A stretch of 64,000 nt of DNA, taken from the NCBI GenBank assembly GCA_963826115.1, contig CAWGVS010000003.1:128001-192000 (forward strand), given 5' to 3'. This document shows, piece by piece, positions 11,367 through 64,000 of this stretch. How positions within the stretch are numbered: the first letter of the stretch is position 1; each line of letters starts with the position of its first letter. Under the pieces are notes generated by a model, which was not told where the DNA came from, searched no databases, and saw nothing but the letters and a program-made list of their open reading frames with translations. Source of the DNA: an uncultured Candidatus Rokubacteria bacterium. GTDB taxonomy: Bacteria; Methylomirabilota; Methylomirabilia; Rokubacteriales; DASRDR01. The position numbers and the translations under genes were made by a program.

Positions 11367-11630
11367 TCACTGGGGCACCGGAAGGTCACCCCGGCAGGTG
11401 GCCATGCGCGGATAGAGTCGAGGGGCAGCGGCGGTGAGGAGCGCACAGGTACCAAGCAGAGCGGCGGCGTCGAGCCAGAGCCCTGAAATAGGCGTGCCGG
11501 AAGGCAGCATCAGCGCTCGGAGAGCGTCGACCTGATACGTGAGGGGGTTCGCCCGGGACACGAGCCGCAGCCAGCGGGGTATCAGCGCCAAGGGGCAGAC
11601 GGCGCTGCTCGCGAACAAGGTGGGCGTCAT
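11367..11630 (-). pseudogene. C-terminal remnant of an ABC-2 type permease
   Basis: LFASSAVCPLALIPRWLRLVSRANPLTYQVDALRALM matches ABC-2/DrrB permease C-termini; N-terminal part absent. Confidence 0.7.
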
Positions 11631-11653
11631 GTGGCGCGCAGGTCAAGAATCGG

Positions 11654-11669
11654 TGGCACCACGGTTGCT
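11654..11669 (+). promoter_or_regulatory. sigma54 promoter (DUF3300-DUF2950 operon)
   Basis: TGGCAC-CACGG-TTGCT, just upstream of ATG at 11684. Confidence 0.8.
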
Positions 11670-11683
11670 TGTCACGATGTGAG

Positions 11684-12982
11684 ATGGCTTCCCCGAGCCG
11701 GATCATCAGCCTCGGGCTCACCGTGGTCCTGGTCGCCTCGGCCGGTCAGGCACAGTCCCCCCAGACAAGCCCACCGGCTCAAGGGCCGGCCGTCTTCACG
11801 CCAGACCAACTGGACCAGTTGCTGGCCCCAATCGCGCTCCATCCGGATCCCCTGGTTGGCCAGATCCTCATGGCCGCCACCTATCCGCTCGAGGTGGTCC
11901 AGGCGACCCGCTGGCTCCAGGACCCGAATCACGCGGCGCTGACCGGGTCGGCGCTGGCGGCGGCCCTCGACCTCCGGCCGTGGGATCCTAGCGTCAAGGC
12001 GCTCGTGTCCTTTCCCCAGATCCTTCGCATGATGGATGGAGCGCTCGAGTGGACGGAAGCAGTCGGCGACGCATTCCTGTCCGATCAGGTGGCCGTCATG
12101 GACGCGATCCAGCGGCTGCGCCTGCGCGCGCAGTCGGCCGGGACCCTGGTCACCACCCCGCAGCAGATGGTGCTGACACAGGACCAGGCGATCGGCATCA
12201 TCCCGGCCGATCCTCAGGTTGTCTACGTGCCGATGTACAACCCTGCTGCGGTGTATGGGACGTGGGTGTACGCGCCGAGTCCCTACTTCGGCTATCCCGT
12301 TGTCGCCCCCGTCGGGGTCGTCGGCGGCGTGGGCTTCGGCGTCGGCATCGTCGTCGTGCCGTACTTTTGGGGCTGGCATCACTGGGACTGGCCTCACCAC
12401 CGTCTTCACGTCGATCATGACCGGTTTGTTCACATCAGCGGTCACCGGCCCCCCCCCGGCGGCGTCTGGGTACACGACCCGGTCCACCGTCACGGGATCC
12501 CTTATCGCGATCCGGGAACGCGCGCGCGCTTTGTGCCTCCCCCTCACGGCGACGTGCGCGGCTACGGGACGGGCCTCCCGCCGGGGAGACCGGGCCCCGG
12601 CGCCAAGAGCGGGAGCGCGCCGCCGCGCGCTGCCGCTCCTCCGGGAAGCCCGGCCCCGCCCCGCGGGAACCCCGCCCCCGGCGGTGCCGGGAGCGCCCCC
12701 GTGGCGCGACCAACCACTCGTCTGACTCTGCCGCCACAGACCCCGACGACACGCCCCGCGCCACCTGCCGTCGGCGGAGCGCTCCGCCCGCTCGCCCCCG
12801 CCTTCGAATCCTTCGGACGGGGCGTCGATGTTCGCACGCAGACCGAGCGGGGCCAGTCGAGCCGCCGGTCCATCGCCCCATCGGTGCCGAAGGCTCCAGC
12901 CAAACCGCCATCAAGCGGGACGCGCTCCGGAGGAGTCCCCTCCGGGACCCCCAAGTCCGGGGGCAGTCAACCTCGCCGGTGA
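11684..12982 (+). CDS. DUF3300 domain exported protein with Pro/Gly-rich tail
   Basis: Signal peptide; LDQLLAPIALHPDPL..ILMAATYP, WDPSVKAL, VMDAIQRLR. Confidence 0.9.
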   Translation: MASPSRIISLGLTVVLVASAGQAQSPQTSPPAQGPAVFTPDQLDQLLAPIALHPDPLVGQILMAATYPLEVVQATRWLQDPNHAALTGSALAAALDLRPWDPSVKALVSFPQILRMMDGALEWTEAVGDAFLSDQVAVMDAIQRLRLRAQSAGTLVTTPQQMVLTQDQAIGIIPADPQVVYVPMYNPAAVYGTWVYAPSPYFGYPVVAPVGVVGGVGFGVGIVVVPYFWGWHHWDWPHHRLHVDHDRFVHISGHRPPPGGVWVHDPVHRHGIPYRDPGTRARFVPPPHGDVRGYGTGLPPGRPGPGAKSGSAPPRAAAPPGSPAPPRGNPAPGGAGSAPVARPTTRLTLPPQTPTTRPAPPAVGGALRPLAPAFESFGRGVDVRTQTERGQSSRRSIAPSVPKAPAKPPSSGTRSGGVPSGTPKSGGSQPRR

Positions 12983-12995
12983 GGGTCACACGACG

Positions 12996-13940
12996 ATGAG
13001 ACGCACGGGCCAGTCACGAACGATCCGACCAGGCTGGCCGGTGCTGATCGCAGCACTCCTCTTGGTGGCCGCGAGTCCGCCGGGATGGACGGCGGGCGAG
13101 CCGCCGGCGACGTTCGCCTCGGCGCAGCAGGCCGTGGACGCGCTCGTGACCGCCACCAGGACTACCCGGCTGGCCGACCTGCGCCAGATCCTGGGCACGG
13201 CGGGGCGGGCTCTCATCTGGTCCGGAGATCGGGTTGCCGATCGCGTAGGGCGGGACAAGTTCATCGTGGCCTACGATCACGGCCATCGACTCGAGATGAC
13301 CGGATCGACCCGGGCAGTCCTGATCGTCGGCCCCGACCAGTGGCCCTTTCCCATCCCCTTGGTCCACGACGCGACGGGCTGGCACTTCGACACACCCGCC
13401 GGTGTCCAGGAGATCCTCAATCGACGCGTCGGGCGGAACGAGCTCAACGTCATCGAGGTCTGCCGGGCCTTCGTCGTGGCGCAGCGCGAGTATGCCGCGC
13501 GAAACCCGTTGGGAAGCGACCTCGCGGAGTTCGCCCAGAACCTCCTCAGCACGCCGGGGACCCGCGACGGCCTCTACTGGCCCGCCGAGCCGGGCGAGCA
13601 GGACAGCCCGCTCGGACCTCTGGTTGCGAGCGCCCGGGCCGAGGGCTACCAGCGCACGCCGGTCGCTCAGCCCATCCCCTACCACGGCTACTACTATCGG
13701 ATGCTCACGCGCCAGGGAGCCAACGCCCCCGGAGGCGCGCGCGACTACATCGTGGACGGCCACATGCGGGGAGGCTTCGCGCTGGTGGCGTTCCCCGCGA
13801 AGTACGGCAACTCCGGCGTCATGACGTTCCTGGTCAACCAGACCGGCATCGTCTACCAGAAGAACCTCGGTCCGGACACGGCGACCATTGGGCTCCAGCT
13901 CGCGGCGTTCGACCCCGATGCCACGTGGACGACGCCCTGA
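12996..13940 (+). CDS. DUF2950 domain protein
   Basis: WPFPIPL, EILNRRVGRNEL, DGLYWP, PYHGYYYRML, YGNSGVMTF; usual partner of DUF3300. Confidence 0.9.
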   Translation: MRRTGQSRTIRPGWPVLIAALLLVAASPPGWTAGEPPATFASAQQAVDALVTATRTTRLADLRQILGTAGRALIWSGDRVADRVGRDKFIVAYDHGHRLEMTGSTRAVLIVGPDQWPFPIPLVHDATGWHFDTPAGVQEILNRRVGRNELNVIEVCRAFVVAQREYAARNPLGSDLAEFAQNLLSTPGTRDGLYWPAEPGEQDSPLGPLVASARAEGYQRTPVAQPIPYHGYYYRMLTRQGANAPGGARDYIVDGHMRGGFALVAFPAKYGNSGVMTFLVNQTGIVYQKNLGPDTATIGLQLAAFDPDATWTTP

Positions 13941-14115
13941 CGCGATAGGTCGCGACTCCTGGTGAGCTTGCCTCCCCTTGTGAAGACTCGCTCTCCGCCA
14001 TCGAGGGTTCCCGGTCGACTGGACGCCTTCCGATACACAGGGAACCACGATCAGGATCCCGGCCTACTACCCCTCCGGCACCGACACAACGGCCATTGCA
14101 CACGCGCGACTACCC

Positions 14116-16482
14116 TCACGCATGCGGCCATGTCCAGTTCCGCACCTCCGGCCGGTCCTCCCCGTGCTCGGCGATGTACGCCTTGTGCTCGCTCCGACGA
14201 TCGCGCATCGCCTGCCTGACGTGCGGGGCGCGGGAGAGCAGCCCGGGGACGCGATCGATCACGTCCATCACGAGGTGGTAGCGGTCCAGATCGTTCAGCA
14301 CGACCATGTCGAAGGGCGTGGTGGTCGTGCCCTCCTCCTTGTAGCCGCGCACGTGGAGATTCCCGTGATTGGTCCGCCGGTACGTCAGCCGGTGGATGAG
14401 CCAGGGATACCCGTGGTAGGCGAAGACGATCGGCCGATCCGTGGTGAACAGCGCGTCGAACTCGGCGGTCGACAACCCGTGGGGATGCTCCTCGCTCGGC
14501 TGAAGGCGCATGAGGTCCACGACGTTGACGACCCGCACGCGCACCTCGGGCAGATGCTCGCGAAGCAGCGCCGCCGCCGCGAGGGTTTCGAGCGTCGGCA
14601 CGTCACCGGCGCACGCGAGGACCACGTGTGGATCCACGCCGCCGTCGGTGCTCGCCCACTCCCAGGTCCCGATGCCGGCGGCGCAGTGTGCCATCGCCGT
14701 CTCCATGTCGAGGTACTGAAGAGCGGGCTGCTTGCCCGCAACGATCACATTGACGTAGCCGCGGCTCCGTAAGCAGTGGTCCGCGACCGACAACAGCGTG
14801 TTGGCGTCCGGGGGCAGATAGACGCGAATCACCTCGGCTTTCTTGTTGACCACGTGGTCGATGAACCCGGGGTCCTGATGCGAGAACCCGTTGTGGTCCT
14901 GGCGCCAGACGTGCGAGGTCAGCAGATAGTTCAGCGACGCAATCGGAGGACGCCAAGGGATCTGGCGCGTCACCTTCAGCCACTTGGCGTGCTGGTTGAA
15001 CATCGAATCCACGACGTGGATGAACGCCTCGTAGCTCGAGAACAGTCCATGGCGCCCGGTGAGCAGGTAGCCCTCGAGCCATCCCTGGCAGGTGTGCTCG
15101 CTCAAAATCTCCATCACCCGCCCTTCGGCACCGAGGTGCTCGTCCTCCGGCCGCCGCTCGGCCATCCAGGCGCGGTCGGTTACCTCGAACAAGGCATCGA
15201 GGCGGTTCGACGCGGTCTCATCGGGGCCGAACACCCGGAAGTTGCGCCGGTCCCGGTTGAGCGTCATCACGTCACGCAGGAATCGACCGAGGGGCCGGGT
15301 GGCCTCCGCGACCACGACCCCCGGCCGGGGGACCTCCACCGCATGCTGGCGGAAGTCCGGTAGCTGGAGCTCCTCGAGCAGCAGTCCCCCATTGGCGTGC
15401 GGGTTCGCGCCCATGCGGCGGGCACCCGTCGGGGCGAGCTGGGCGAGCTCGCGGCGAAGCCGGCCCGATTCGTCGAACAGCTCTCCCGGCCGATAGCTCC
15501 GCATCCACATCTCGAGCTGTCGCAGGTGATCGGGGTGATCCGCCAGGCCAGCGAGCGGCACCTGGTGCGAGCGCCACGAACCCTCGGTCTTCTTGCCGTC
15601 CACTTCCTTCGGGCCGGTCCAACCCTTGGGGGTCACGAGGACGAGCGCCGGCCAACGAGGCCGGGTCGCCGGCCCGCCAGCGCGCGCGCGCCGCTGGATC
15701 GACCGAATCTCCCCGACGACGGCATCGAGGGTCGCCGCCATGGCCTCGTGCATCGAAGCTGGCTCGTCCCCCTCCACGACGTAGGGGCGGTGTCCGTAAC
15801 CGGTGAGGAGGCTCTCCAGCTCGGCCCGGCCGATCCGGGCCAGAACGGTCGGGTTCGCGATCTTGTATCCGTTCAGGTGGAGGATAGGCAGGACGGCACC
15901 GTCCGTCACCGGGTTGAGGAACTTGTTCGAGTGCCATGCCGTGGCGAGCGGCCCGGTCTCCGCCTCTCCGTCGCCAATCACGCACGCGACCAGGAGGTCG
16001 GGGTTGTCGAACGCGGCGCCATAGGCATGGGCGAGCGAATAGCCGAGCTCACCGCCCTCGTGGATCGAGCCGGGCGTTTCGGGCGCGACGTGACTGGGAA
16101 TCCCGCCCGGAAAGGAGAATTGCCGGAACAGACGCCGCATCCCGGCCTCGTCCCGGGAGACGTCCGGATAGCGCTCGCTGTACGTGCCCTCGAGGTACGT
16201 GTTCGCCACCATGCCCGGCCCGCCATGGCCCGGACCGCACACGTAGATGACGTCGAGGTCGCGCGCTCGGATCAGGCGGTTCAGATGCGCGTAGATGAAG
16301 TTCAGACCCGGAGTCGTCCCCCAGTGGCCGAGAAGTCGCGGCTTGACGTGGGCGATCTCGAGCGGCTTCCGGAGCAGCGGGTTGTCGAGAAGATAGATCT
16401 GCCCGACGGACAGGTAGTTCGCCGCCCGCCAGTAGGCGTCGATCAGGGCCAGCTCCCCTGTGGACAACACACCAGCAGCCAT
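14116..16482 (-). CDS. xfp: phosphoketolase
   Basis: [42 protein letters not shown]; AGGAGG RBS. Confidence 0.96.
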
Positions 16483-16788: not shown

Positions 16789-16837
16789 TGAGGCGATCCC
16801 GCCCCAGGTGTCGCATCAGTGGGACAGTCTGCCCGAG
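16789..16837. promoter_or_regulatory. candidate enhancer (UAS) sites
   Basis: TGAGGC-GATCCC-GCCCCA at 16789 and weaker TGGGAC-AGTCTG-CCCGAG at 16820; 122 and 91 bp before the promoter at 16911. Confidence 0.55.
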
Positions 16838-16910: not shown

Positions 16911-16926
16911 CGGCATCACCGTTGCA
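16911..16926 (+). promoter_or_regulatory. sigma54 promoter (USP-OsmC)
   Basis: CGGCAT-CACCG-TTGCA; GG and GC cores intact. Confidence 0.75.
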
Positions 16927-23009: not shown

Positions 23010-23025
23010 TGCAATGGCTCTGCCA
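23010..23025 (-). promoter_or_regulatory. sigma54 promoter (adaptor-ABC operon, possibly including ZIP)
   Basis: Minus strand TGGCAG-AGCCA-TTGCA. Confidence 0.78.
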
Positions 23026-31607: not shown

Positions 31608-31623
31608 AGCAACGGCGCTGCCA
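31608..31623 (-). promoter_or_regulatory. sigma54 promoter of the leftward operon (nucleotidyltransferase onward)
   Basis: Minus strand TGGCAG-CGCCG-TTGCT. Confidence 0.8.
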
Positions 31624-31785: not shown

Positions 31786-31801
31786 TGGCACTCGGGTTGC
31801 A
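31786..31801 (+). promoter_or_regulatory. sigma54 promoter (USP-ATPase operon)
   Basis: TGGCAC-TCGGG-TTGCA. Confidence 0.82.
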
Positions 31802-36773: not shown

Positions 36774-36789
36774 TGGCACTTCCGTTGCA
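36774..36789 (+). promoter_or_regulatory. sigma54 promoter (hpf-USP-groEL)
   Basis: TGGCAC-TTCCG-TTGCA preceded by a T-rich tract. Confidence 0.82.
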
Positions 36790-43351: not shown

Positions 43352-43367
43352 TGGCACCATGGATGCA
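43352..43367 (+). promoter_or_regulatory. sigma54 promoter (USP-CBS-tdh-kbl)
   Basis: TGGCAC-CATGG-ATGCA; GG and GC cores intact. Confidence 0.72.
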
Positions 43368-46921: not shown

Positions 46922-46937
46922 AGGCACTCGGGATGCG
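46922..46937 (+). promoter_or_regulatory. weaker sigma54-like promoter
   Basis: AGGCAC-TCGGG-ATGCG, about 60 nt before the small ORF at 46996. Confidence 0.4.
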
Positions 46938-48071: not shown

Positions 48072-48087
48072 TGGCATCGGCGTTGCA
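48072..48087 (+). promoter_or_regulatory. sigma54 promoter (USP-ppsA)
   Basis: TGGCAT-CGGCG-TTGCA. Confidence 0.82.
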
Positions 48088-51262: not shown

Positions 51263-51278
51263 TTGCACGGTCCTTGCA
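51263..51278 (+). promoter_or_regulatory. degenerate sigma54-like promoter (CBS-glgP)
   Basis: TTGCAC-GGTCC-TTGCA; GG core altered, but the UAS pair lies at the usual distance. Confidence 0.45.
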
Positions 51279-53542: not shown

Positions 53543-53935
53543 CTACCGAGCCGAGCCGTCGGTCGATCCGGGCGTTTCGTCCCTCAGAAGACGCTCCACA
53601 GCCTGCCGGAAAGCGGCGTTCGCGAACGGCTTCGCAAGGAACGTGTCGACCCCGATCTTCTTCGCGGCATCCCTCGTGCTGACGGAATCGTCGGCGCTGA
53701 TGAGGAGCACCGGGATCGGCGGGACGCGGGTACGCGCATGCCGTGCCACCACGAGTCCATCAGGTCCAGGCAACCGCAGATCCGTCACGACGAGGTCGGG
53801 AGCCTCCCGGTCGATGACGGCGATCGCACCCGCGGCCGTGCTCGCGCTCAGAGGGACGTGCCCGAGCGGCCGGAGGAGTCGCTGGCAGTTCGTCACCAGG
53901 TCCGGCTCGTCGTCCACGACCAAGATGGTTGCCAA
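53543..53935 (-). CDS. single-domain response regulator
   Basis: ILVVDDE, TDLRLP phosphoacceptor, LAKPF; likely TTG start after GAGG. Confidence 0.9.
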   Translation of the reverse strand: MATILVVDDEPDLVTNCQRLLRPLGHVPLSASTAAGAIAVIDREAPDLVVTDLRLPGPDGLVVARHARTRVPPIPVLLISADDSVSTRDAAKKIGVDTFLAKPFANAAFRQAVERLLRDETPGSTDGSAR

Positions 53936-53959
53936 GATGTGATGCCTCACTGAACGGAA

Positions 53960-53975
53960 CGCAATCGAGGTGCCA
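53960..53975 (-). promoter_or_regulatory. sigma54 promoter of the receiver gene
   Basis: Minus strand TGGCAC-CTCGA-TTGCG. Confidence 0.8.
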
Positions 53976-54035
53976 ATCGTCGTGGGTGCGATTCAGCTCT
54001 CCACGCCCCGCCCGCCAATCCCGGACCCCGCGGGA

Positions 54036-54053
54036 TGGGGCATCATCGGCCCG
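54036..54053. promoter_or_regulatory. candidate UAS
   Basis: TGGGGC-ATCATC-GGCCCG, 78 bp from the minus-strand promoter. Confidence 0.55.
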
Positions 54054-54146
54054 ATCGAGGCGCGCGGGCCACAGAGGCGCGCAGGGAGCCGCGACCGGCG
54101 ATCCGGACTTGACGCGGCCCTGGCCACCCGGAAGAATGGCATCGGA

Positions 54147-55853
54147 ATGGCGGACGGCAAGCCGAGGGCACGGGAAGCGTCCAGTCCGGCCGGGCGCCAA
54201 CGGCGCGGGAGCGGAGGAACTCACTCCGGCGCGCTCCCGGAAGGGGCATCCCGCAACCCCTCGGCGCTGGCCGATGCCGCTCTGGAGAACTCCCCTCTCG
54301 GCATCGTCATTGTCGACCACACCGGACGGATCGTGCGGGCCAACAGTCGTCTGGACGACATGTTCGGGTACGCACGGGGCGAGCTCGCCGGCGTGGTGCT
54401 GGAGACCCTCCTGCCCGAGCGCTTCCGCCCCAGCCACGTGCGGCACCGCGCAGGCTTTTTCAGCGACCCCCGGGTCCGCCCCATGGGACTCGGCCTCGAC
54501 CTCATGGCCCGTCGCAAGGACGGTGGTGAGTTCCCCGTCGAGATCAGCCTGAGCTTCATCGAGGCGGAGGAAGGTCTCCTCGCCCTCGGCTTCGTCACCG
54601 ACATCACGCCGCGCAGGAACGCGGAGCGGCGACTCCACGCGGAATTCCTGGTGACGCGCGTGTTTACGGAGCCTTACGGAGCGAAGGATCTCCCCACGAG
54701 CCTACTCCAGGCGCTGTGCGAGAGCCTCGACTGGGAGCTGGGCGAGCTCTGGCGCCCAGACGGCGAGGTGCTGCGATACGAGGTCGGATGGCATCGACCC
54801 GAGCTCGACACGAGTGAGTTCGACGCCTTCAGCCGCGAAGTCGTCTTGCCACGCGGAACTGGGCTGGCCGGCAGGGCCTGGGAGACGGAGCGCACACTCT
54901 GGATGGGGATCGACCGGGGTGCGAATCCCCGGTCCGCGGTTGCGGCGAAGATCGGGCTCAGGTCCGGCTACGCGGTCCCGATCGTCGGGGGCAGCGCAGT
55001 GACCGCCGTCGTGGTGCTCCTCAGCCGGGAGCCGCGTGAGCTGGACGAAGCGCTCCTCGCCATGCTGACCGACATCGGCAGCCGGATCGGCCAGTATCTC
55101 GATCACCGGCGCGTCGAGGTGGAGCTCCGGCACCAGCGCGAGGTGCTCTATCAGACCGAGAAGCTCAGCGCCCTCGGCCGTCTCGTGGCCGGGGTCGCCC
55201 ACGAGATGAACAACCCCCTGGGCATCATTTCGTCACGGATCGAGCTGATGCTGGGCGAGGCGGAGGGCCAGGCCTTCCCGGCCCAGCATCTCGAGGACTT
55301 GAAGGTGATCCACCGCAACGTGCTGCGCGTGGCGGGGGTCGCCCAGGCCCTCCGGTCGTTCGCCCGCCAGTCCACGGGAGAGCGGCGCCCGGTCGACCTG
55401 AACGCGGTGGTCGCGGAGACGCTCCTCCTCGTGGGAAAGCCGCTGAGCACGGACAACATCCGCGTCGTGACGGGGCTCGACCAGACCCTCCCGTCCATCC
55501 TCGGCGACGCGAACGCGCTCCAGCAGGTCTTGCTGAACCTTCTCGCGAACGCGCGTGAGGCCATGACGGGTGAAGGCGAGATTCGCATCCAGTCCGGGCG
55601 CGACCCGGCACGGAGCGGGCGGGTCCGTCTCGTCGTGACGGATACCGGACCCGGGATCCCGGCGGCGCACCTCCCCCACCTGTTCGAGCCGTTCTACACG
55701 ACGAAGCCCTCCGGAACCGGGCTCGGGCTCGCGGTGAGCTACGGGATCGTCCAGAACCACCTCGGCACGATCGACGTCCACTCCATCCCAGGCCAGGGTG
55801 CGACCTTCACCCTGAGCTTCCCAACCCTGGACGATGCCGCGGGGTCCGCGTGA
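54147..55853 (+). CDS. cytoplasmic PAS-GAF sensor histidine kinase
   Basis: PAS (LLPERFRPSH...RKDGGEFPVEISLS), GAF (GLAGRAW), H-box AHEMNNPL, N/G1/F/G2 boxes; no TM helix; start uncertain. Confidence 0.93.
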   Translation: MADGKPRAREASSPAGRQRRGSGGTHSGALPEGASRNPSALADAALENSPLGIVIVDHTGRIVRANSRLDDMFGYARGELAGVVLETLLPERFRPSHVRHRAGFFSDPRVRPMGLGLDLMARRKDGGEFPVEISLSFIEAEEGLLALGFVTDITPRRNAERRLHAEFLVTRVFTEPYGAKDLPTSLLQALCESLDWELGELWRPDGEVLRYEVGWHRPELDTSEFDAFSREVVLPRGTGLAGRAWETERTLWMGIDRGANPRSAVAAKIGLRSGYAVPIVGGSAVTAVVVLLSREPRELDEALLAMLTDIGSRIGQYLDHRRVEVELRHQREVLYQTEKLSALGRLVAGVAHEMNNPLGIISSRIELMLGEAEGQAFPAQHLEDLKVIHRNVLRVAGVAQALRSFARQSTGERRPVDLNAVVAETLLLVGKPLSTDNIRVVTGLDQTLPSILGDANALQQVLLNLLANAREAMTGEGEIRIQSGRDPARSGRVRLVVTDTGPGIPAAHLPHLFEPFYTTKPSGTGLGLAVSYGIVQNHLGTIDVHSIPGQGATFTLSFPTLDDAAGSA

Positions 55854-56528: not shown

Positions 56529-56544
56529 TGGCATCGCAGTTGCT
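56529..56544 (+). promoter_or_regulatory. sigma54 promoter (aeRF1-like operon)
   Basis: TGGCAT-CGCAG-TTGCT after a T-rich tract. Confidence 0.82.
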
Positions 56545-57874: not shown

Positions 57875-57883
57875 CGGTAGCCC

Positions 57884-59194
57884 GTGCGGTCTCCCGTTCG
57901 TGTCCTGATTCTGGGAGCCGCGGGTCGAGACTTCCATAACTTCAACGTTGTCTACCGGGACGACCCGGCGACGGAGGTCGTGGCGTTCACGGCGGCCCAG
58001 ATCCCGGGCATCTCGGGTCGCCGATACCCGCCGAAGTTGGCCGGGCCGCGCTATCCGGCCGGTATTCCGATCGAGCCGGAAGAGGCCCTCGACAGGCTGG
58101 TCCGCGAGCATACCGTCGACCTCGTGGTGCTTGCTTACAGCGATCTCAGCCACGAGCAGGTCATGCACCTCGCGAGCCGCGCGCTGGCGGCCGGTGCCGA
58201 CTTCGCCCTCCTGGGGCCGCGGAGGACCATGCTCCGCTCCGCGCGGCCGGTCGTCGCCGTCACGGCCGTCCGGACCGGTTGCGGGAAGGGAGCCGTGAGT
58301 CGACGGGTCGTGGACATCCTCCGGGGGCGGGGGCGGCGGGTCGCGGTCGTGCGGCACCCGATGCCTTACGGCGATCTCGGAGCCCAGCGGGTCCAGCGCT
58401 TCGCCACGCTCGCCGATCTCGACCGAGCCGAGGTGACGCTGGAGGAGCGTGAAGAGTACGAGCCGCACCTGGAGAAGGGGGTGGTGGTGTGGGCCGGCGT
58501 CGACTACGCGGCGATCCTGGCGCGCGTGGAGGCCGAGACGGACGTCATCGTCTGGGACGGCGGGAACAACGATCTGCCCTTCTTCACCCCCACGATCCAC
58601 ATGTGTCTGGTCGATCCGCACCGCTCCGGGCATGAGTCGCGTTTCCATCCCGGGGAGACGAATCTCCGGCTTGCGGATGTCGTGATCGTCGTCAAGGAAG
58701 ACACGGCGGACCCCGTCCAGATCGAGGCGGTCAGAGTGGCGGCTCGGTCCCTCAATCCGCGCGCCCGGCTCGTCGACACACGGTTCCCCCTCCGGGTCGA
58801 GGCACCCGAGCGCCTCCAGGGCCGCCGGGTGCTCGCCGTCGACGACGGCCCCACCCTGACGCACGGCGGCCTGCCGGCGGGGGCGGCCGAGCTGGCGGCC
58901 CGACGATTCGGCGCGATCCTGGTCGATCCCCGCCCGTACGCTCGGGGCAGCATCCAGCGAGTGTTCGACGACTACCCGATGCTCGGAGCCGTTCTCCCCG
59001 CCGTCGGCTACGGTGCCCAGCAAATGGCGGAGCTTCGCGCCACGATCGACGCGGTGCCATGCGATTTCGTCCTCCTGGGGACGCCGATCGATCTCGGCCG
59101 CGCGCTGGCGCTGCGCCATCCTGTGATCCGGGTGCGCTACGAGGTCGAGGAGGTCGGACGCCCGACCCTTGACGAGGTCCTCGGAGACCTCTAG
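57884..59194 (+). CDS. COG2403 P-loop protein (cDPG-synthetase-like / ArcE arginine-synthetase-like)
   Basis: GAAGRDFHNFN, FTAAQIP, RTGCGK, RHPMPYG, EEREEYE, WDGGNND, DGPTLTHG. Confidence 0.85.
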   Translation: MRSPVRVLILGAAGRDFHNFNVVYRDDPATEVVAFTAAQIPGISGRRYPPKLAGPRYPAGIPIEPEEALDRLVREHTVDLVVLAYSDLSHEQVMHLASRALAAGADFALLGPRRTMLRSARPVVAVTAVRTGCGKGAVSRRVVDILRGRGRRVAVVRHPMPYGDLGAQRVQRFATLADLDRAEVTLEEREEYEPHLEKGVVVWAGVDYAAILARVEAETDVIVWDGGNNDLPFFTPTIHMCLVDPHRSGHESRFHPGETNLRLADVVIVVKEDTADPVQIEAVRVAARSLNPRARLVDTRFPLRVEAPERLQGRRVLAVDDGPTLTHGGLPAGAAELAARRFGAILVDPRPYARGSIQRVFDDYPMLGAVLPAVGYGAQQMAELRATIDAVPCDFVLLGTPIDLGRALALRHPVIRVRYEVEEVGRPTLDEVLGDL

Positions 59195-59222
59195 TAGTCG
59201 CCGGGTGCCCGCGGGCCTCCGA

Positions 59223-60605
59223 TCAGGCCTTGATGCCGTGCTTGGTCAGCAAGCGATGAAGCGTCTTCCGGTCGATGCCGGCCGACTTCGCGGCCTGCGA
59301 GATGTTGCCCCCGTGTCGTCGGAGCAGGTCGGTCAGGTACCCCTGCGCGAAGGTATGCAGCCAGGCCTCGCGAGCCTGGGCGAGAGGCAGGTTCGTGCCC
59401 GGAATCGCCGGGCCCGGGCGACCTCTCCCGCGAATGTGGTCCGGGAGATCCCGGACCCGGATCATCGGCCCGTCCGTGAGCGCGCAGGCGCGCTCGATCA
59501 CATTCTGGAGCTCGCGGACATTGCCCGGCCAGGCGTGGGCCTCGAGGCGCGCGAGCGCCTCCGTCTCGATTCCCTCGAGCGGCCGCTCGCGGTTCCGCCC
59601 GTAGCGGCGCAGGAAATGGTGCGCCAGAAGGCCCACGTCACCTGCCCGCTCGCGCAGAGGTGGCAACATGATCGTGATCACATTGACCCGGTAGAAGAGA
59701 TCGTCGCGAAACTCGCCCTTCCGGACGAGCTCCGCAGTGTCGCGGTTGGTCGCGGACACGAGCCGAATGTCCACATTCACGAACTTGATCCCGCCGACGC
59801 GGCGGATCTGCCGCTCCTGGAGCGCCCGGAGAAGCTTCGACTGGAGCGCCTTGGGCAGCTCGCCGATCTCGTCGAGAAAGAGCGTGCCCCGATCGGCGAC
59901 CTCGATCATCCCCGGCTTGCTGCGGTCCGCACCGGTGAACGCGCCACGCTCGTGACCGAACAGCTCGGATTCGAGCAGGGCATCGGGCAGCGCGGCGCAG
60001 TCCACGGGAACGAACACCTCGGCGGCCCGCGCGCTCTGGGCATGGATCGCCCGGGCAATCAGCTCTTTCCCGGTCCCCGACTCGCCCTGGATCAGGATGT
60101 TGGCCTCGGATCGGGCCGCCTTCTGGACGAGCTCGAACACCGCCGTCATGACCGGGCTCTTGCCAATGACATTGTCGAACCCCGCGCGTGGCGCGAGCGG
60201 CTGGCGAAGCCGGCGATTCTCTTCGATCAGACGGCGCCGCTCGGCTGCGCGCTCGACGGCGATGCGGAGCACGTCATTGGACGGTAGTGGCTTCAACAGA
60301 TAGTCGAACGCCCCTGCCCGCATGGCGTCGACGGCAGACTCCACCGTCCCGTGCCCCGTAATCATGATCACCACGACGTCGGGATCGAGCTCGAGGGCGC
60401 GAGCGAGCACCTGCATCCCGTCGACCCGCGGCATCTTGAGATCGGTGAGAACGACGTCCGGGCACTCGCTCTCGAGGAGCGCCATCGCCCGCTCCCCGTC
60501 GGTCGCCGTGATGCAAGGATAGTCCTCACGGCCGAGGAGCCTTGCCCAGTTGGCGACGACGTCCGGCTCGTCGTCCACGATCAGTACTCGTGGCTTCGTG
60601 CTCAT
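59223..60605 (-). CDS. NtrC-family sigma54-dependent response regulator (bEBP)
   Basis: Receiver (VDDE, TDLKMP, LKP), Walker A GESGTGKE, intact GAFTGA, LFLDEIG, WPGNVREL, Fis-type HTH. Confidence 0.96.
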   Translation of the reverse strand: MSTKPRVLIVDDEPDVVANWARLLGREDYPCITATDGERAMALLESECPDVVLTDLKMPRVDGMQVLARALELDPDVVVIMITGHGTVESAVDAMRAGAFDYLLKPLPSNDVLRIAVERAAERRRLIEENRRLRQPLAPRAGFDNVIGKSPVMTAVFELVQKAARSEANILIQGESGTGKELIARAIHAQSARAAEVFVPVDCAALPDALLESELFGHERGAFTGADRSKPGMIEVADRGTLFLDEIGELPKALQSKLLRALQERQIRRVGGIKFVNVDIRLVSATNRDTAELVRKGEFRDDLFYRVNVITIMLPPLRERAGDVGLLAHHFLRRYGRNRERPLEGIETEALARLEAHAWPGNVRELQNVIERACALTDGPMIRVRDLPDHIRGRGRPGPAIPGTNLPLAQAREAWLHTFAQGYLTDLLRRHGGNISQAAKSAGIDRKTLHRLLTKHGIKA

Positions 60606-60674
60606 GGCGCGCCCACGAGGGATCAGGGTAGCACGGCACGGCCAAAACTGGCCGCGCCGCACGTCGGCGGGCCG

Positions 60675-60917
60675 TCAGGCGGGAAGGTTCTCCGGGACCG
60701 CGAGCGTCGTGTAGTCCACGAACCCGTAGTCGACGGGTCGCTTGAGCTTCCAGACGTCCCGATCGGTGAGGAAGACCCAGGAGATGCGCGTCATGACCAG
60801 CGCGACGCCCGACGGCCGGAGAGCCGGATACGCGTCAGGGGACCGAAGGTCCGCGAGCATCGAGCGCGCCGGCTCATCGCTCGCCATGGTGTCGTCCAGC
60901 TTGCCAGACCCCCTCAT
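60675..60917 (-). pseudogene. N-terminal remnant of an Rv2004c-like APH/AAA_33 kinase
   Basis: TRISWVFLTDRDVWKLKRPVDYGFVDYTTL matches the family N-terminus, then stops after about 80 aa. Confidence 0.75.
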
Positions 60918-61297
60918 CCACCTCCATCCGTCACCAGCGGGGGTAAAACTCGTTTGATGGCATCGAGGAACGCCCCGTTCGAGAACGGCTTCGCCAGGTA
61001 GACCTCAGCGCCGCTCTCCGTCGCCGCCTGCCTCGTTTGGGGGGAGTCGTACCCAGTGATCAGGATCACCGGGATCGGCGGCACCTGGCGGCGGGCGTGA
61101 CGGGTCACGGCCAGACCGTCCGCCCCGGGGAGCCGGAGATCCGCCACGACCAGATCCGGCCGTTCCCGGTCGATCATCGCCATCGCGTCGGGCCCCGTGT
61201 GGGCCCGAAGGGAGGCGTGACCGATCCTCTGGAGAAGGCGTTCACAGTTCGCGACAAGATCCGGCTCGTCATCGACAACCAAGATGGTTCGAGGCAT
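60914..61297 (-). CDS. single-domain response regulator (paralog of 53543..53935)
   Basis: TILVVDDEPDLV.NC.RLL, DLRLPG.DGL, VPPIPV, LAKPF.N shared with the first copy. Confidence 0.92.
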   Translation of the reverse strand: MPRTILVVDDEPDLVANCERLLQRIGHASLRAHTGPDAMAMIDRERPDLVVADLRLPGADGLAVTRHARRQVPPIPVILITGYDSPQTRQAATESGAEVYLAKPFSNGAFLDAIKRVLPPLVTDGGG

Positions 61298-61317
61298 CGT
61301 CACCGCCATGCGATGAA

Positions 61318-61333
61318 AGCAATCAGGATGCCA
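61318..61333 (-). promoter_or_regulatory. sigma54 promoter of the receiver-remnant-bEBP operon
   Basis: Minus strand TGGCAT-CCTGA-TTGCT. Confidence 0.82.
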
Positions 61334-61394
61334 CTCCCGGCAGGGTGGACTGACACCCCAGCGGCCCTTGCCAGCCGCGCGCGCGGGCGCCCTC

Positions 61395-61431
61395 TGGGGC
61401 GCCGCCGTCCCTATGGGTGCCCATCGCCCCA
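61395..61431. promoter_or_regulatory. candidate tandem UAS shared by divergent promoters
   Basis: TGGGGC-GCCGCC-GTCCCT (61395) and TGGGTG-CCCATC-GCCCCA (61414), 19 bp apart. Confidence 0.68.
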
Positions 61432-61483
61432 CCAGTACCCTGACAGAGCGCTACCAAGCCTCTGAGTCCAGCCGAATCCGCGC

Positions 61484-61499
61484 TGGCACCGCCGTTGCT
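61484..61499 (+). promoter_or_regulatory. sigma54 promoter (cytochrome-ackA)
   Basis: TGGCAC-CGCCG-TTGCT. Confidence 0.82.
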
Positions 61500-61673
61500 C
61501 CCGGAGCAGTCTGACGATCAGCAGGGGCCCGGCCGGGCGAGGTACCATGCTGGTGACCGGTGGCGAGATCATGGCCCGCGCGGTCATCCGGGGCCGGTTC
61601 GAGATCGGGCTCGGCAACCAGCCTCACGCGCCTGCCGAAGCCGTGGATTCTCCACCCAGGGAACCCGGAGGAG

Positions 61674-62020
61674 ATGATGACGCGCGCCGAAATCTCCCGC
61701 ATTGCTCTGATCTGCCTGTTGGCCGCGGGTCTCTGGACTCATCGGTGACCCGGCTCGACGCGCAGAGCCGAGCGGCGCTCGTCACGCAGGGACGGCAGCT
61801 CTACACGGACAAGGGCTGCTACGGCTGTCACACGGTGGGGGCCACCGGGACGCCCATCGCCCCGGACCTCCGCCGCGCGGCCACCCGCTATCCGGAGGCC
61901 AGTCTGGCGCGGTGGCTGCGTGACCCATCCGCTCAGGAACCAACGCGCCACATGCCGAATCTCGACCTGAGCGAAGCCGAGGCGAGCGCCCTCGCCGCTT
62001 ACCTGGCCACGCTCCCGTGA
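61674..62020 (+). CDS. mono-heme cytochrome c; signal peptide apparently frameshifted near 61740
   Basis: GGAGGAG RBS + MMTRAEISRIALICLLAAGLW in one frame; CYGCH, APDL, WLRDP, HMPN in another (ORF 61547..62020). Confidence 0.75.
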
Positions 62021-62129
62021 GAGCGACGCCCGCGAGGGCGCGTCGACATGTCCACGACAGGCCATGCGGACAGGTTCCGCGTGTGGCCTGACGGCAGCCC
62101 ACAAGCTGATGGTGATCGAGGAGGGAACG

Positions 62130-62333
62130 ATGCCACGTCCACGAAGCCCGCTTCAGCCGCCCCGGTCGAAGAAGGCCGGTCAACCGCCTCAGGAGCTCGC
62201 GGTCAGCCCACGGGTTCGCCGACGACAGAAGACTGCCACGACTGCGGTCCGCAAGGACACGACGATCTCTCAGCCCGCGCAGGATCCTCGCGCGCGCTGG
62301 CCGGCGTCGAAGCCGAAGTTCTCGAAGCGGTGA
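62130..62333 (+). CDS. small basic low-complexity protein
   Basis: GAGGAGGG RBS; 67 aa rich in K/R/P; stop 20 nt before ackA. Confidence 0.6.
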   Translation: MPRPRSPLQPPRSKKAGQPPQELAVSPRVRRRQKTATTAVRKDTTISQPAQDPRARWPASKPKFSKR

Positions 62334-62352
62334 CGGTCTCCCCCGTCCGGCC

Positions 62353-63565
62353 GTGATCGTCCTGGCCCTGAACTGCGGGAGCTCGTCGCTCAAGTTCCAG
62401 GTCTTCGCCCATGACCCCGCGGCGTCGTCGGGAGATGCCCGGCGCCTCGCCCGCGGCGGCGTCGACCGCATCGGGGACGAGGCGACCCTCGCCTTCCAGG
62501 CGGAAGGAAGCCCGGCGACTCGGACGCGCGAGCCCATCCGGGATCATGAGGTCGCAGTCCGCCAGGTGCTCGGCTGGCTGGCCGCGGGCGGGGCGTCACC
62601 GCACGGAGACGCGATCCGGATCGACGCGGTCGGACACCGTGTAGTCCACGGAGGCGACCGCTTCAGGGAGTCCGTCCTGATCGACGCAGGACGTGCTGGA
62701 CGCGATCCGGGCGCTCGAGACGCTGGCGCCGCTCCACAACGCCCCGAGCCTCGTGGGCATCGAGGCCGCCCGAGCCGCGCTCGGCCCCGACGTCCCCATG
62801 GTCGCCGCCTTCGACACGACCTTTCACGCCTCGATGCCCGAGCACGCGTATCGCTATGCCATCCCCCACGAGCTGGCCCTGACGCATCGCGTCCGACGCT
62901 ACGGCTTCCACGGACTCGCCTACCGCTCGGTCCTTGCCCGCTACGCTCAGGTGGTCGGAGGGCCGCGCGACCGCGTCACCATTGTCGCGTTTCACCTCGG
63001 GAACGGCTGCTCGGCGGCCGCGATCAAGGATGGGCGCTCGATCGATACCTCCATGGGCCTCACACCCCTGGAAGGTCTCGTGATGGGGACCCGGTCGGGC
63101 GACGTCGATCCCGCGCTGATCGGCTATCTCGCGCGCGTGGAGGGCGTGCCCGCCCAGGAGGTCGAGCGGTGGCTCAACGAGCGCGCCGGGCTACTCGGCC
63201 TGTCGGGCCGGAGCCGCGACATGCGGGACCTGCTTGCGCACGAGGGGGACGACCCGCGGGCCCGGTTGGCGGTGGACGTCTTCTGCTACCGGGCCCGCAA
63301 GTACCTGGGCGCCTACCTGGCGACGCTGGGCGGGGCCGACGCGGTCGTGTTCAGCGGCGGCATCGGCGAGCACGCCCCCGCGGTGCGCGCCCGCATCTGC
63401 GCCGGGATGGAATGGTGCGGCCTGGTCCTGGATCCCGGGCGCAACGCCGCCGCGGTCGGGCGCGAGGCTCGCCTGACCCCCGACGGGGCCGCCCTCCCCG
63501 CCTACGTGATCCAGGCCGACGAGGAGCGGATGATCGCCCAGGATGTCGTGGAGCGGGTCGCATGA
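62353..63565 (+). pseudogene. ackA: acetate kinase with a +1 frameshift near 62689
   Basis: LNCGSSSLK and GHRVVHGG in one frame; LAPLHN, FDTTFH, RYGFHG, HLGNG, TSMGLTPLEG, GGIGE in the next. Confidence 0.9.
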
Positions 63566-63625
63566 AGCGGCGGATCCCGCTGCCGATGGCCGCCGTCGGC
63601 GGCTTCGCGGCCCTCGGGCTGGCCC

Positions 63626-63663
63626 TGGGGCACCGGCGGGCGGGCCGGTGCACGGACGCCTCA
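63626..63663. promoter_or_regulatory. candidate tandem UAS (degenerate)
   Basis: TGGGGC half-site at 63626 and CGGTGC-ACGGAC-GCCTCA at 63646; 113 and 93 bp before the promoter. Confidence 0.4.
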
Positions 63664-63738
63664 CCGCCAGCCGTGAATTCGAAGGGCGCCGCGCCCCCTG
63701 AGTCCCACGAAATCGACCCATCCTCACCTAGTCCGTAC

Positions 63739-63754
63739 GGGCATTCCGGTTGCA
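63739..63754 (+). promoter_or_regulatory. sigma54 promoter (USP)
   Basis: GGGCAT-TCCGG-TTGCA. Confidence 0.72.
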
Positions 63755-63806
63755 CGGGCGAATGAGGGCGGGGTAGGCCATCAAGCTCCGCGGAAAGGAC
63801 ACGCCC

Positions 63807-64000
63807 ATGTACAGGCGCATGCTGGTTCCCCTCGATGGCTCCGAGGTGGCCGAAGCCATCCTGCCCTTCGCCGAGCAGGTCGCCGGCCCACTCGATGCAG
63901 AGGTCGTCCTCCTCCGCGTCATCGAGCCGCTCTCTCCGGTCGAGCTCGTGGCTACCGCCGGGGTCGTTGCCCCGGATACCTTCACGCTCCGAGACATCGA
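63807..64000 (+). CDS. universal stress protein, cut by window end
   Basis: AAAGGA RBS; MYRRMLVPLDGSEVAEAILPFAEQVA..EVVLLRV. Confidence 0.9.
   Translation, partial: MYRRMLVPLDGSEVAEAILPFAEQVAGPLDAEVVLLRVIEPLSPVELVATAGVVAPDTFTLRDI

Follow-up and report, generated by a model that had tools for sequence, protein, structure and literature searches.

A predicted sigma-54-dependent regulon for low-energy survival clustered in a genomic island of an uncultured Rokubacteria bacterium

Does a dense series of -24/-12 promoter-like sites on a contig of an uncultured Candidatus Rokubacteria bacterium represent one regulon and, if so, which regulator controls it, in response to which signal and with what physiological output? 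We addressed this question for a stretch of 64,000 nucleotides (C3:128001-192000, referred to here as the window), which belongs to a genome of 6.24 Mb, 12 contigs and 72% GC, and for which an earlier note had proposed a self-contained hypoxia and dormancy regulon wired by sigma-54. The Rokubacteria are widespread soil bacteria, and their physiology is read from genomes because they have no cultured member. We propose that window positions 11.3-64.3 kb constitute a genomic island that would act as one transcriptional unit of ~14-16 operons and ~40 genes. The full model, comprising the wiring of the island, a low-O2 signal and an output of low-energy survival, is assigned a rough probability of 0.65.

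The promoter search was based on the pattern TGGCAC-N5-TTGC, which was used in a loose form (at most 2 mismatches) and a strict form (at most 1 mismatch, with GG and GC fixed). The 13 clear and 2 weaker -24/-12 sites reported previously are all present in the sequence, with the four minus-strand sites starting at 23011, 31609, 53961 and 61319, i.e., 1 nt later than originally written. Five of the 15 sites match the consensus exactly (11654, 31786, 36774, 53961 and 61484), seven have one mismatch (in the case of 51263 within GG), and the remaining three (16911, 63739 and 46922) deviate at two positions; GG and GC are kept in 14 sites, the remaining site 51263 reading TTGCAC for TGGCAC (TG for GG). 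The statement that these promoters face the heads of operons was confirmed by eye, as 15 of 15 are located between gene calls and point toward a start codon ~15-110 nt away, often with a visible GGAGG-type ribosome-binding site ahead of it. An excess over the genome background is seen for the strict pattern, as 14 of its 197 genomic matches fall in the window versus 2.0 expected (Poisson P = 3e-8), but not for the loose pattern, which is not clearly enriched (59 matches in the window versus 45 +/- 7 in shuffles, with 3 of 100 shuffles reaching 59). The window, which makes up 1% of the genome, contains 5 of its 42 exact matches. Bins of 50 kb (630, overlapping) have a median of one strict match, compared with 13 for the window, a density equalled only by the region C10:60-136 kb. 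Genome-wide, 131 of the 197 strict matches fall outside rough gene calls although ~87% of the genome is called coding; thus, most of these matches are likely real, and the organism likely has a large sigma-54 regulon. Two strict matches in the window, 52490(+) and 56401(-), are intragenic and probably due to chance. The check for rpoN that had been suggested together with the proposal revealed one full-length copy in the genome (C5:818494-819903; TIGR02395, 445 bits versus a cut-off of 277), and the same genome encodes ~27 full bacterial enhancer-binding proteins (bEBPs), both being in line with a large sigma-54 regulon.

A common element was identified upstream of these promoters. In the 195 nt preceding 13 non-redundant promoters, words of the GCCCCA/TGGGGC type are the most enriched k-mers relative to 2,435 background intergenic chunks, with the best 6-mer found in 9 of 13 promoter regions versus 12% of the background chunks, and the enriched words form an 18-bp palindrome, TGRGGC-N6-GCCYCA, hereafter the dyad. 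A dyad with at most 2 mismatches, centred 61-113 nt upstream, accompanies 13 of the 15 listed sites, whereas the best copy at 46922 has 3 mismatches and 11654 has none. Among strict promoter matches, such a dyad lies 40-150 nt upstream of 10 of 14 in the window and of 11 of 183 elsewhere (Fisher P = 1.5e-8); both intragenic matches lack it. Exact dyads occur nine times in the genome, three of them in the window versus 0.09 expected, and six of the nine are located upstream of a sigma-54 site. Outside the window, three exact dyads precede four sigma-54 sites at C5:626 kb and C6:956-959 kb. A search for composite sites, i.e., dyad plus promoter with at most 2 mismatches in total, returned 17, all of them intergenic, with 10 in the window and at least seven outside the island; the control with the dyad placed downstream returned two. 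The dyad centres are phased at about -49, -69, -89 and -113 from TGG, and several promoters have two or three copies ~20 bp apart, which is the layout predicted for an oligomerising NtrC-type activator.

The island encodes one such protein, an NtrC-type bEBP composed of Response_reg, Sigma54_activat (233 bits), AAA_lid_14 and HTH_8 (Fis-type helix-turn-helix) domains by Pfam, whose translation contains GESGTGKE (Walker A) and ERGAFTGA (the GAFTGA motif). No other response regulator with a DNA-binding domain was found in the island, the other two being receiver-only proteins, one of which precedes the bEBP gene in the same operon. The second protein that had been described in this block, a PAS-GAF sensor kinase, was likewise confirmed by Pfam; it is the only histidine kinase of the island and has neither a receiver nor a globin domain, and its true start is probably at 54147 or 54333. 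The best sequence matches of its PAS domain in PDB are 10jx, annotated as 'multi-sensor histidine kinase' (E = 1e-20), E. coli DosP (1e-12), the heme PAS sensor 1v9y, and FixL (3e-9). In the phmmer alignment, the kinase motif RPSH is opposite to RPAH of DosP, and the aligned histidine is the heme ligand in DosP. The pattern LLPERFR-x-x-H-x-x-HR...RPMG...RRKDG is kept in the kinase orthologs of four relatives (G014, G008, G036 and G019). The best sigma-54 score upstream of the kinase gene, calculated with a position weight matrix (PWM), is 5.6. As a separate observation, the only sigma-70-like match in the 44-64 kb segment, a weak one (TTGACG-17-AAGAAT at 54109-54137 (+)), is located just upstream of the likely kinase start; constitutive expression of the sensor would fit this match, though a single one (versus 0.8 expected) is at chance level.

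To assess conservation, we used 40 relatives, including 14 genomes of the same genus, 6 of the same family and 20 of other families of the order (41 genomes with the studied one). The closest relatives of the bEBP come from metagenome-assembled genomes of Candidatus Rokubacteria, Rokuibacteriota and Methylomirabilota (95% (partial), 89%, 88%, 77% and 75% identity), followed by Binataceae proteins at 55-58% and then by ordinary bEBPs of many phyla at no more than 49% (best segment). Orthologs with at least 60% identity were identified in 24 of the 40 relatives (10 of 14 in the genus, 5 of 6 in the family, 9 of 20 in other families); the assignment is ambiguous in one genome, and no ortholog was found in 15, some of which are incomplete. 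Full-length PAS-GAF orthologs of the kinase are encoded on the contig of the bEBP in 8 of 9 genomes. The kinase gene lies directly upstream of the bEBP gene on the same strand in G022, G023 and G030 and is divergent from it in G032; such adjacency is the usual signature of a cognate pair, here a predicted one. In G030 the pair stands beside a divergent USP-CBS unit (USP, universal stress protein) with a sigma-54 site and a dyad, an arrangement that looks like a putative minimal core of the system. Because of the common upstream dyad and this conservation in relatives, the local kinase and bEBP appear to be the best candidates to run the island.

The promoter units are conserved as well, in agreement with the synteny and promoter conservation that the earlier note had suggested looking for. 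G014 is syntenic over window positions 25-62 kb, and within 54-80 kb around the bEBP ortholog a dyad accompanies 14 of 18 strict matches in G014, 10 of 11 in G008, 7 of 9 in G019, 6 of 14 in G036 and 2 of 9 in G031. In the alignments of two promoters, those of the Balon-like gene (A1, five close relatives) and of the CBS gene CBS_d (A2, three genomes), the dyad half-sites and the -24/-12 elements are kept while the spacers are variable. The exact composite pattern TGGGGC-N6-GCCCCA-N(50-80)-TGGCAY-N5-TTGC has 37 matches in 18 of the 41 genomes, and its reversed control has none. It is found in 16 of the 24 relatives with a bEBP ortholog, in the single ambiguous one, and in 0 of the 15 without an ortholog (0 of 14 when the unpublished genome G038 is set aside), a co-occurrence that, with relatives that are not independent, is a strong hint and is not to be read as a probability. 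An extension of the architecture beyond the Rokubacteria via this activator was considered and dropped for want of USP or CBS neighbours: none lies within 10 kb of the Binataceae bEBPs (54-56% identity by tblastn) or of those at 69 loci from other phyla (bEBPs of at most 48%).

The predicted operons and the remaining features are listed in Table 1. Operons were deduced from strand and spacing only, since the terminator scan, being at chance level, gave no help with their ends; the terminator and sigma-70 scans yielded 8 terminator-like sites versus 4.7 +/- 2.4, and 0 versus 6.0 +/- 2.9. The island genes were taken from the longest open reading frames and Pfam, because the gene caller, which is based on GC content at third codon positions (GC3), under-calls low-GC3 genes and misses genes of the island, where GC3 is low. 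Rfam and tRNA scans of the window gave no matches.

Table 1. Predicted sigma-54 promoters with the genes downstream of them, regulatory proteins and a further gene of the island, in window coordinates (position weight matrix scores are given as PWM).
Position	Strand	Feature	Genes	Upstream dyad
11276..11290	-	tentative extra promoter, TGGCAT-N5-CTGC, PWM 15.1	Mg-type P-ATPase (10996 down to 8411); possible left island edge	at -70
11654..11668	+	promoter, exact consensus	DUF3300 (to 12982), DUF2950 (to 13940)	none within 200 nt
14116..16482	-	gene; best upstream PWM score 7.6, no convincing sigma-54 promoter	phosphoketolase (XFP), by Pfam	
16911..16925	+	promoter, CGGCAT-N5-TTGC	tandem USP (17007-17954), OsmC (17951-18379)	exact, 16789-16806, centre at -113
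23011..23025	-	promoter	HlyD/FtsX/ABC efflux operon (22995 down to 19374)	23100-23117
31609..31623	-	promoter	7-gene operon (31561 down to 24103): nucleotidyltransferase, BON, class I fructose-bisphosphate aldolase, PfkB, CBS, fusion of protein-isoaspartate methyltransferase (PCMT) and erythromycin esterase, unknown protein (24103-25230)	31707-31724, common with 31786(+)
31786..31800	+	promoter	tandem USP (to 32696), type II P-type ATPase (32782-35595), AIR-synthase-like (35592-36662)	31707-31724, common with 31609(-)
36774..36788	+	promoter	HPF/S30AE (36861-37280), USP (37296-37760), GroEL (37864-39480), acyl-AMP ligase-ACP-acyltransferase (39558-42338)	36696-36713 and another ~20 nt downstream
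43352..43366	+	promoter	USP (to 43894), CBS (to 44606), epimerase-family dehydrogenase (44603-45631), glycine C-acetyltransferase Kbl (45633-46817)	exact, 43274-43291, and weaker flanking copies
46922..46936	+	weaker promoter, AGGCAC-N5-ATGC	small membrane open reading frame, unknown protein (47257-47925)	
48072..48086	+	promoter	USP (to 48562), phosphoenolpyruvate (PEP) synthase (48648-51123, two frames)	47950-47967 and ~19 nt downstream
51263..51277	+	non-canonical promoter, TTGCAC-N5-TTGC	CBS (to 51762), alpha-glucan phosphorylase (51814-53523)	51165-51182
53543..53950	-	gene with own sigma-54 promoter	RR_a, single-domain response regulator, by Pfam	
53961..53975	-	promoter	RR_a	tandem, 54036-54053 and 54056-54073
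53970..55853	+	gene	sensor histidine kinase PAS-GAF-HisKA-HATPase, by Pfam	
56529..56543	+	promoter	Balon/Rv2629-like aeRF1 homolog (56741-57874), cyclic-2,3-DPG-synthetase/CobW-like (57884-59194)	exact, 56438-56455, and an additional half-site
59223..60662	-	gene, last of the operon from 61319(-)	NtrC-type bEBP	
60914..61432	-	gene, first of the operon, followed by small open reading frame (60675-60917) and bEBP	RR_b, single-domain response regulator, start MPRTILVVDDE	
61319..61333	-	promoter	RR_b, small open reading frame, bEBP	tandem, 61395-61412 and 61414-61431, common with 61484(+)
61484..61498	+	promoter	cytochrome c (61547-62020), unknown protein (62048-62356), acetate kinase (62353-63565, two frames)	tandem, 61395-61412 and 61414-61431, common with 61319(-)
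63739..63753	+	promoter, GGGCAT-N5-TTGC	USP from 63807 past the window end	63646-63663, 2 mismatches

Both divergent promoter pairs recur in relatives, the 31609(-)/31786(+) pair in G014 and G008 and the 61319(-)/61484(+) pair in L002, L008, G014 and G008. For the weaker site 46922(+), a counterpart was assigned in G014 from position: TGGCAC-N5-ATGC at 40628(-), with an exact dyad at -102, stands upstream of the ortholog (39170-) of the protein encoded at 47257-47925. The non-canonical -24 element of site 51263, as TTGCAC or TTGCAT, is kept together with its dyad in the three genomes of alignment A2 (the window, G014 and G008), so this site may be a functional sigma-54 promoter lacking the usually invariant GG.

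Several further observations concern individual sites. At 56470-56610, the Balon-like promoter has a CGATCCGGCAGG block between the dyad and the -24 element, and the Balon-like gene has a leader segment GACCGATTAGAACACCAA without a match in Rfam; both are kept in five close relatives and could represent a site for IHF or a second regulator (CGATCCGGCAGG) and a leader element (GACCGATTAGAACACCAA). Within the same operon, a soil-metagenome contig of a related strain joins both ends of the 57914-59075 segment with 5 other letters between them; thus, the cyclic-2,3-DPG-synthetase/CobW-like gene, most of which is missing there, seems dispensable or variable. An additional one-mismatch -24/-12 site without a dyad, at 24050-24064 (-), precedes a small open reading frame (23795-24157, minus strand) that has a CPEC...CPCGG motif, no Pfam match, and a NUDIX gene downstream. 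The equally dense region C10:60-136 kb (loci L084-L086), which reaches 15 strict matches per 50 kb, differs from the window in its -12 element (CTTGC versus G/ATTGC) and encodes a HAMP kinase, a bEBP and a receiver protein of its own; the small number of genes scanned there, namely LPG synthase, DAG kinase-like, MlaC, nucleotidyltransferase and isoamylase-like genes, are lipid and glucan related, and the region may be a second sigma-54 stress island under another activator.

The composition of the island differs from that of the genome, with GC of 0.693 versus 0.72 and GC3 of its genes of 0.86 versus 0.94 (P = 4e-18). Together with the bEBP ortholog not being found in 4 of the 14 same-genus genomes, these deviant values suggest an accessory, possibly exchanged block, although the scanned window genes and the tRNA scan gave no integrase, transposase or tRNA border. 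The lowered GC (0.66-0.70 versus 0.72) and GC3 (0.86 versus 0.94) extend from window position ~8000 through 64000 to the contig end.

The gene content of the island covers several functional groups. Pfam and NCBIfam identify four CBS-pair genes and six USP genes, of which two are tandem. The translation factors include the S30AE/HPF protein and the aeRF1-like protein; the latter matches NF052289, 'Rv2629 family ribosome hibernation factor', over residues 17-375 (model positions 3-357 of 357) with 79 bits, versus a cut-off of 320, and Pfam baeRF_family10 with 88 bits, above the cut-off, and is therefore best described as a putative distant relative of Balon/Rv2629 and not as a confirmed member. 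Rv2629 itself binds the ribosomal A site and is induced by hypoxia, according to the excerpted text of PMC10901736. Proteostasis is represented by GroEL and the PCMT fusion, envelope and ion homeostasis by BON, OsmC, the type II P-type ATPase, the MacB-type efflux set and possibly the Mg-type ATPase, and carbon and energy metabolism by alpha-glucan phosphorylase, PfkB, class I aldolase, PEP synthase and acetate kinase, as well as by the epimerase-family dehydrogenase and Kbl, which form a threonine-to-acetyl-CoA pair. A satellite locus at C6:956-960 kb has dyad-plus-promoter units and contains three further CBS genes, cytochrome c, a FocA-like channel, a divergent heme-copper oxidase, ADP-forming acetyl-CoA synthetase and an AAA_33 protein. 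Judged by family names, this gene set could be a plausible programme for surviving without adequate respiration. In a separate comparison, the best PDB matches of CBS_a (27331-27750) include 'CBS domain-containing protein' chains, named by single characters, in 9znf, 9zng and 9zni. Excerpts of PMC13324472, a 2026 paper, describe archaeal hibernation factors in which an HPF domain is fused to a CBS module, and, purely as a lead, ribosomes might be a target of the many CBS proteins of the regulon.

Sequence statistics and comparative genomics document the promoters, the dyad, their pairing and its conservation, as well as the co-occurrence and linkage of kinase and activator, and on this framework we propose the following model. 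Each operon would be transcribed from a sigma-54 promoter that stays silent without an ATP-driven activator, and the one to three copies of TGRGGC-N6-GCCYCA, ~20 bp apart and 61-113 nt upstream, would be the candidate activator sites. These would be bound by the NtrC-type activator of the island upon its phosphorylation by the PAS-GAF kinase, leading to co-induction of the operons. The activator would drive its own operon, thus creating positive feedback, and would also drive the two single-domain receivers, which are possible phosphate sinks or connectors. The most likely signal would be falling O2 (or NO, CO or the redox state), because the PAS domain, which is of the FixL/DosP type, keeps the heme-ligating histidine. 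The output would combine sensing of the energy charge by nucleotide-sensing USP and CBS proteins, ribosome hibernation via HPF and the Balon/Rv2629-like factor, protein repair and folding by the PCMT fusion and GroEL with ion gradients maintained by the pumps, ATP formation without respiration from glycogen to acetate and from threonine to acetyl-CoA, and a cytochrome c/heme-copper oxidase set at the satellite loci. We consider the wiring, i.e., sigma-54 with a dedicated kinase-activator pair acting via a defined dyad, as very probable, and the low-oxygen signal and dormancy physiology as plausible at slightly better than even odds. Thus, of the earlier proposal of a clustered toolkit controlled by sigma-54 and a bEBP, the dense co-oriented promoters before stress and dormancy genes are confirmed and the local kinase and bEBP are the best candidates for its control, with hypoxia as the presumed signal. 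The attribute 'self-contained' is not retained, since dyad-promoter units occur at other loci (C6:956-960 kb) and not every gene of the island has a convincing site.

A number of points weigh against this model and limit its parts. The dyad was derived by eye and from k-mer counts in the same promoters, and the window counts are partly circular for this reason; the results outside the window and across genomes are the independent part of the evidence. Fisher tests overstate significance because the relatives are not independent, and the coding and intergenic labels come from a rough GC3-based gene caller. Membership of the 11654 operon in the regulon is uncertain because its promoter has no dyad within 200 nt, and the upstream PWM scan detected no convincing -24/-12 site ahead of the kinase, phosphoketolase, GNAT and CBS_b/DUF3175 genes. 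Besides the local bEBP, ~26 further bEBPs of the genome could bind the dyad. The PEP synthase and acetate kinase genes are each split over two frames in the assembly, either by assembly indels or as real pseudogenes, although the PEP synthase ortholog in G014 is an intact frame of 878 codons; over 48001-64000, four DNA sequencing runs yielded fragmentary contigs from related strains. The sequencing runs listed as containing this stretch comprise DNA contigs (best share 0.28) and no RNA run. The oxidase and c-type cytochromes fit micro-oxic respiration equally with dormancy, and alpha-crystallin (HspX), nitroreductases and NarK2/NarX were not found among the window genes scanned. In a hand alignment to FixL, the position of its distal arginine is apparently a leucine in the kinase. 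Since this arginine seems absent, heme binding and O2 sensing by the kinase are put forward as a reasoned guess, with about even odds for O2 specifically.

The nature of the signal is the point on which alternative explanations mainly differ from this model. With the same wiring, the kinase could read a metabolite or redox cofactor, and the island could be a general growth-arrest programme for starvation, low energy charge or desiccation. USP, CBS, HPF, Balon-like, GroEL, BON, OsmC and PCMT belong to families of general stress or of stationary phase, Balon homologs occur in varied stress operons (excerpts of PMC10901736), heme binding is predicted only, with the FixL distal arginine apparently missing, and the ligand of the GAF domain is not assigned. 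On the other hand, the nearest solved sequence relatives of the kinase PAS are O2-sensing heme-PAS domains with an aligned proximal histidine; limits of respiration are indicated by the satellite genes for cytochrome c, heme-copper oxidase, the FocA-like channel and ADP-forming acetyl-CoA synthetase, and likewise by acetate kinase in the 61484 operon and by phosphoketolase, which has no convincing -24/-12 site; and the closest described circuits, namely NmpR, DosR and lxa (compared below), are all driven by hypoxia in the texts excerpted. A signal other than oxygen of this general kind is therefore regarded as rather unlikely. There is also a small chance that the sensor reads NO or CO, as DosS and DosT also do, or the redox state of heme or flavin, in which case the island would serve a response to nitrosative or redox stress. 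Binding of more than one diatomic gas is common among heme-PAS and GAF sensors, and the regulon includes a channel of the FocA/NirC family; however, no NO-detoxifying gene (Hmp, NorVW or Hcp) was found among the targets scanned, and NO, CO and redox ligands are already allowed by the proposed model.

The remaining alternatives question the wiring itself. Another bEBP, a regulator that is not a bEBP, or several activators might bind the dyad, leaving only a few promoters to the local NtrC-type protein. Such a division is conceivable in a genome with ~27 full bEBPs, where the sites 11654 and 24050 have no dyad, the -12 regions and dyad quality vary, and the Balon-like promoter has the conserved extra CGATCCGGCAGG block. 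Yet the composite pattern is found in 17 of 25 genomes with an ortholog of the local bEBP (or an ambiguous one) versus 0 of 15 without, the operon of this bEBP has a tandem dyad, the neighbourhoods of its orthologs are rich in dyad-promoter pairs, and bEBPs from other phyla with less than 50% identity lack USP and CBS neighbours; we therefore give this option only a slim chance. It is very unlikely that the -24/-12 matches merely look like promoters by chance because the DNA is GC-rich, with ordinary promoters serving the genes. The two-mismatch pattern hardly exceeds the shuffles (59 versus 45 +/- 7) and two strict matches are intragenic, but against this stand a seven-fold excess of strict matches, the intergenic location and correct orientation of all listed sites, the phased dyads, the conservation of the units across genera and the zero count of the reversed-pattern control.

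Our literature search returned no paper linking Rokubacteria with sigma-54 and nothing relevant on Rokubacteria and dormancy among the papers listed, and the earlier note was aware of no description of such an architecture. The latter statement has to be narrowed in view of two systems, the sigma-54 hypoxia regulon NmpRSTU (PMC11841059) and the clustered low-oxygen locus lxa (PMC3721108), both considered here from excerpts of the respective articles. In Myxococcus xanthus, a heme-dependent kinase relay activates the NtrC-like regulator NmpR, which binds tandem GCGCA-N5-TGCGC sites at sigma-54 promoters and controls an 'oxygen utilization regulon' of 7 promoters and 23 genes, including its own CBS-led operon, USP, a P-type ATPase together with cbb3 oxidase, and also hemN-hemerythrin; induction by hypoxia was demonstrated for one of these promoters (McAllister et al., 2025; PMC11841059). 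The predicted circuit of the island resembles NmpRSTU, as described in these excerpts, by an autoregulated NtrC-like activator, tandem palindromes, sigma-54, and CBS, USP and P-type ATPase targets. It differs in the sensor, which is the protoglobin kinase NmpU acting via the hybrid kinase NmpS in the former and a PAS-GAF kinase in the latter, and in the binding site (GCGCA-N5-TGCGC versus TGRGGC-N6-GCCYCA). Moreover, the NmpR regulon is scattered in that account, whereas more than half of the ~17-26 predicted composite sites described here lie within ~52 kb, and the island adds hibernation factors and fermentation enzymes. Myxococcota bEBPs are 40-48% identical to the island bEBP by tblastn (43-49% in the best segment), like any bEBP, a comparison in which the NmpR sequence itself was not included. 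Because of this low identity and the lack of USP or CBS neighbours, independent recruitment appears more likely than common descent with NmpR.

The likeness to the M. tuberculosis DosR regulon, to which the original proposal had pointed, holds at the level of families and not of orthology. Matches at family level cover seven kinds of DosR targets, namely several USPs, CBS-pair proteins, PfkB, a protein with an erythromycin-esterase domain, the type II P-type ATPase, S30AE/HPF and a Rv2629-family relative; one tandem USP aligns end to end with PDB 'TB31.7', which is presumably Rv2623, and a CBS-pair protein matches Rv2626c (E = 4e-5). Rv2030c, Rv2004c and CtpF were compared by their known domain make-up. 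Of the families named in the proposal, those of six USPs, four CBS proteins, PfkB, the esterase fusion, the type II P-type ATPase, HPF and the aeRF1-like protein were recovered, whereas a Rv2004c-like kinase was not found in the window, the AAA_33 protein being encoded at the C6 satellite instead. The fusion likened to Rv2030c has indeed an erythromycin-esterase domain, joined here to a protein-isoaspartate methyltransferase. The regulatory strategies are different, since DosR is a NarL/LuxR-type regulator that works with a housekeeping-type sigma factor and GAF-heme kinases, while the island has an NtrC-type bEBP and -24/-12 promoters. To our knowledge, actinobacteria lack sigma-54. In addition, the DosR genes are distributed over nine blocks, according to the gene list in the excerpts of PMC5309233, as opposed to one island here.

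The lxa locus of B. cenocepacia is a counterpart in terms of organization. The excerpts of Sass et al. (2013; PMC3721108) describe a cluster of ~50 genes, silent in air and induced by low O2, in which an Anr-like motif recurs at 17 intergenic positions and to which a few satellite loci under the same control belong; USPs are numerous in the cluster, next to a cation ATPase, phosphofructokinase, components of ABC and efflux systems and two-component systems, and the authors remark on the overlap with DosR. Common to lxa and the island are a contiguous cluster, a shared upstream motif and many USPs, with ~16 promoters over ~52 kb and 6 USP genes in the island. In contrast, the lxa motif TGA-N6-TCA is of the Anr/Fnr (CRP family) type, implying sigma-70-class promoters, with no sigma-54 or bEBP in the excerpted account, and the locus belongs to a different phylum (PMC3721108). 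The scanned genes of the window include no protein of the CRP/FNR family.

The individual components also have well-known counterparts. With FixL and DosP the island kinase shares PAS matches of E = 1e-12 to 2e-8, an aligned heme-ligating histidine and a FixL-like kinase core; it differs in its partner, which is an NtrC-type bEBP instead of FixJ, in the inserted GAF domain and in distal-pocket residues, with heme as a prediction. The NtrB/NtrC system offers the same receiver-AAA+-HTH architecture with GAFTGA, tandem dyads ~60-110 bp upstream, autoregulation and a cognate kinase, as predicted here, and is distinguished by its signal, targets and DNA site; the share of targets clustered beside the regulator is unusually high in the island. 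A 2025 survey reports, in the excerpted part, enrichment of USP genes (COG0589) in a sigma-54 promoter analysis of Planctomycetia (PMC12316311).

Relative to these systems, the novelty would reside in the combination and scale, with a different type of sensor, a different DNA site, hibernation factors, a fermentation route and an uncultured phylum. We tentatively picture, with a confidence somewhat short of even, a 'persistence island' of Rokubacteria, in which a heme-PAS kinase and one activator would govern ~60 genes through zero-leak sigma-54 promoters to bring about ribosome sleep via HPF, the Balon-like factor and perhaps the numerous CBS proteins, as well as a maintenance fermentation from glycogen and threonine to acetate, the whole being exchangeable. 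If this is true, DosR (NarL type) and lxa (Anr type) would be joined by a third, independent way of regulating the toolkit, far larger than NmpR, and bacterial phyla would have converged on a common hypoxic-dormancy module, which would help explain the persistence of abundant uncultured soil bacteria. The model, in which sensor and activator are defined and an 18-bp site is linked with ~20 promoters, is testable, and it describes how Rokubacteria could survive anoxic or energy-poor spells in soil by shutting down; the promoter-plus-site units could mark dormancy status in soil metatranscriptomes. Among sigma-54 systems, the island would rank with the largest and most densely clustered regulons under a single activator and would be the second, independent sigma-54-controlled low-oxygen programme after NmpR of Myxococcus. 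Finally, a third wiring around USP, CBS, HPF, Balon/Rv2629-like, PfkB and P-type ATPase proteins, next to those of DosR and lxa, would strengthen the case for regarding these families as a functional module.

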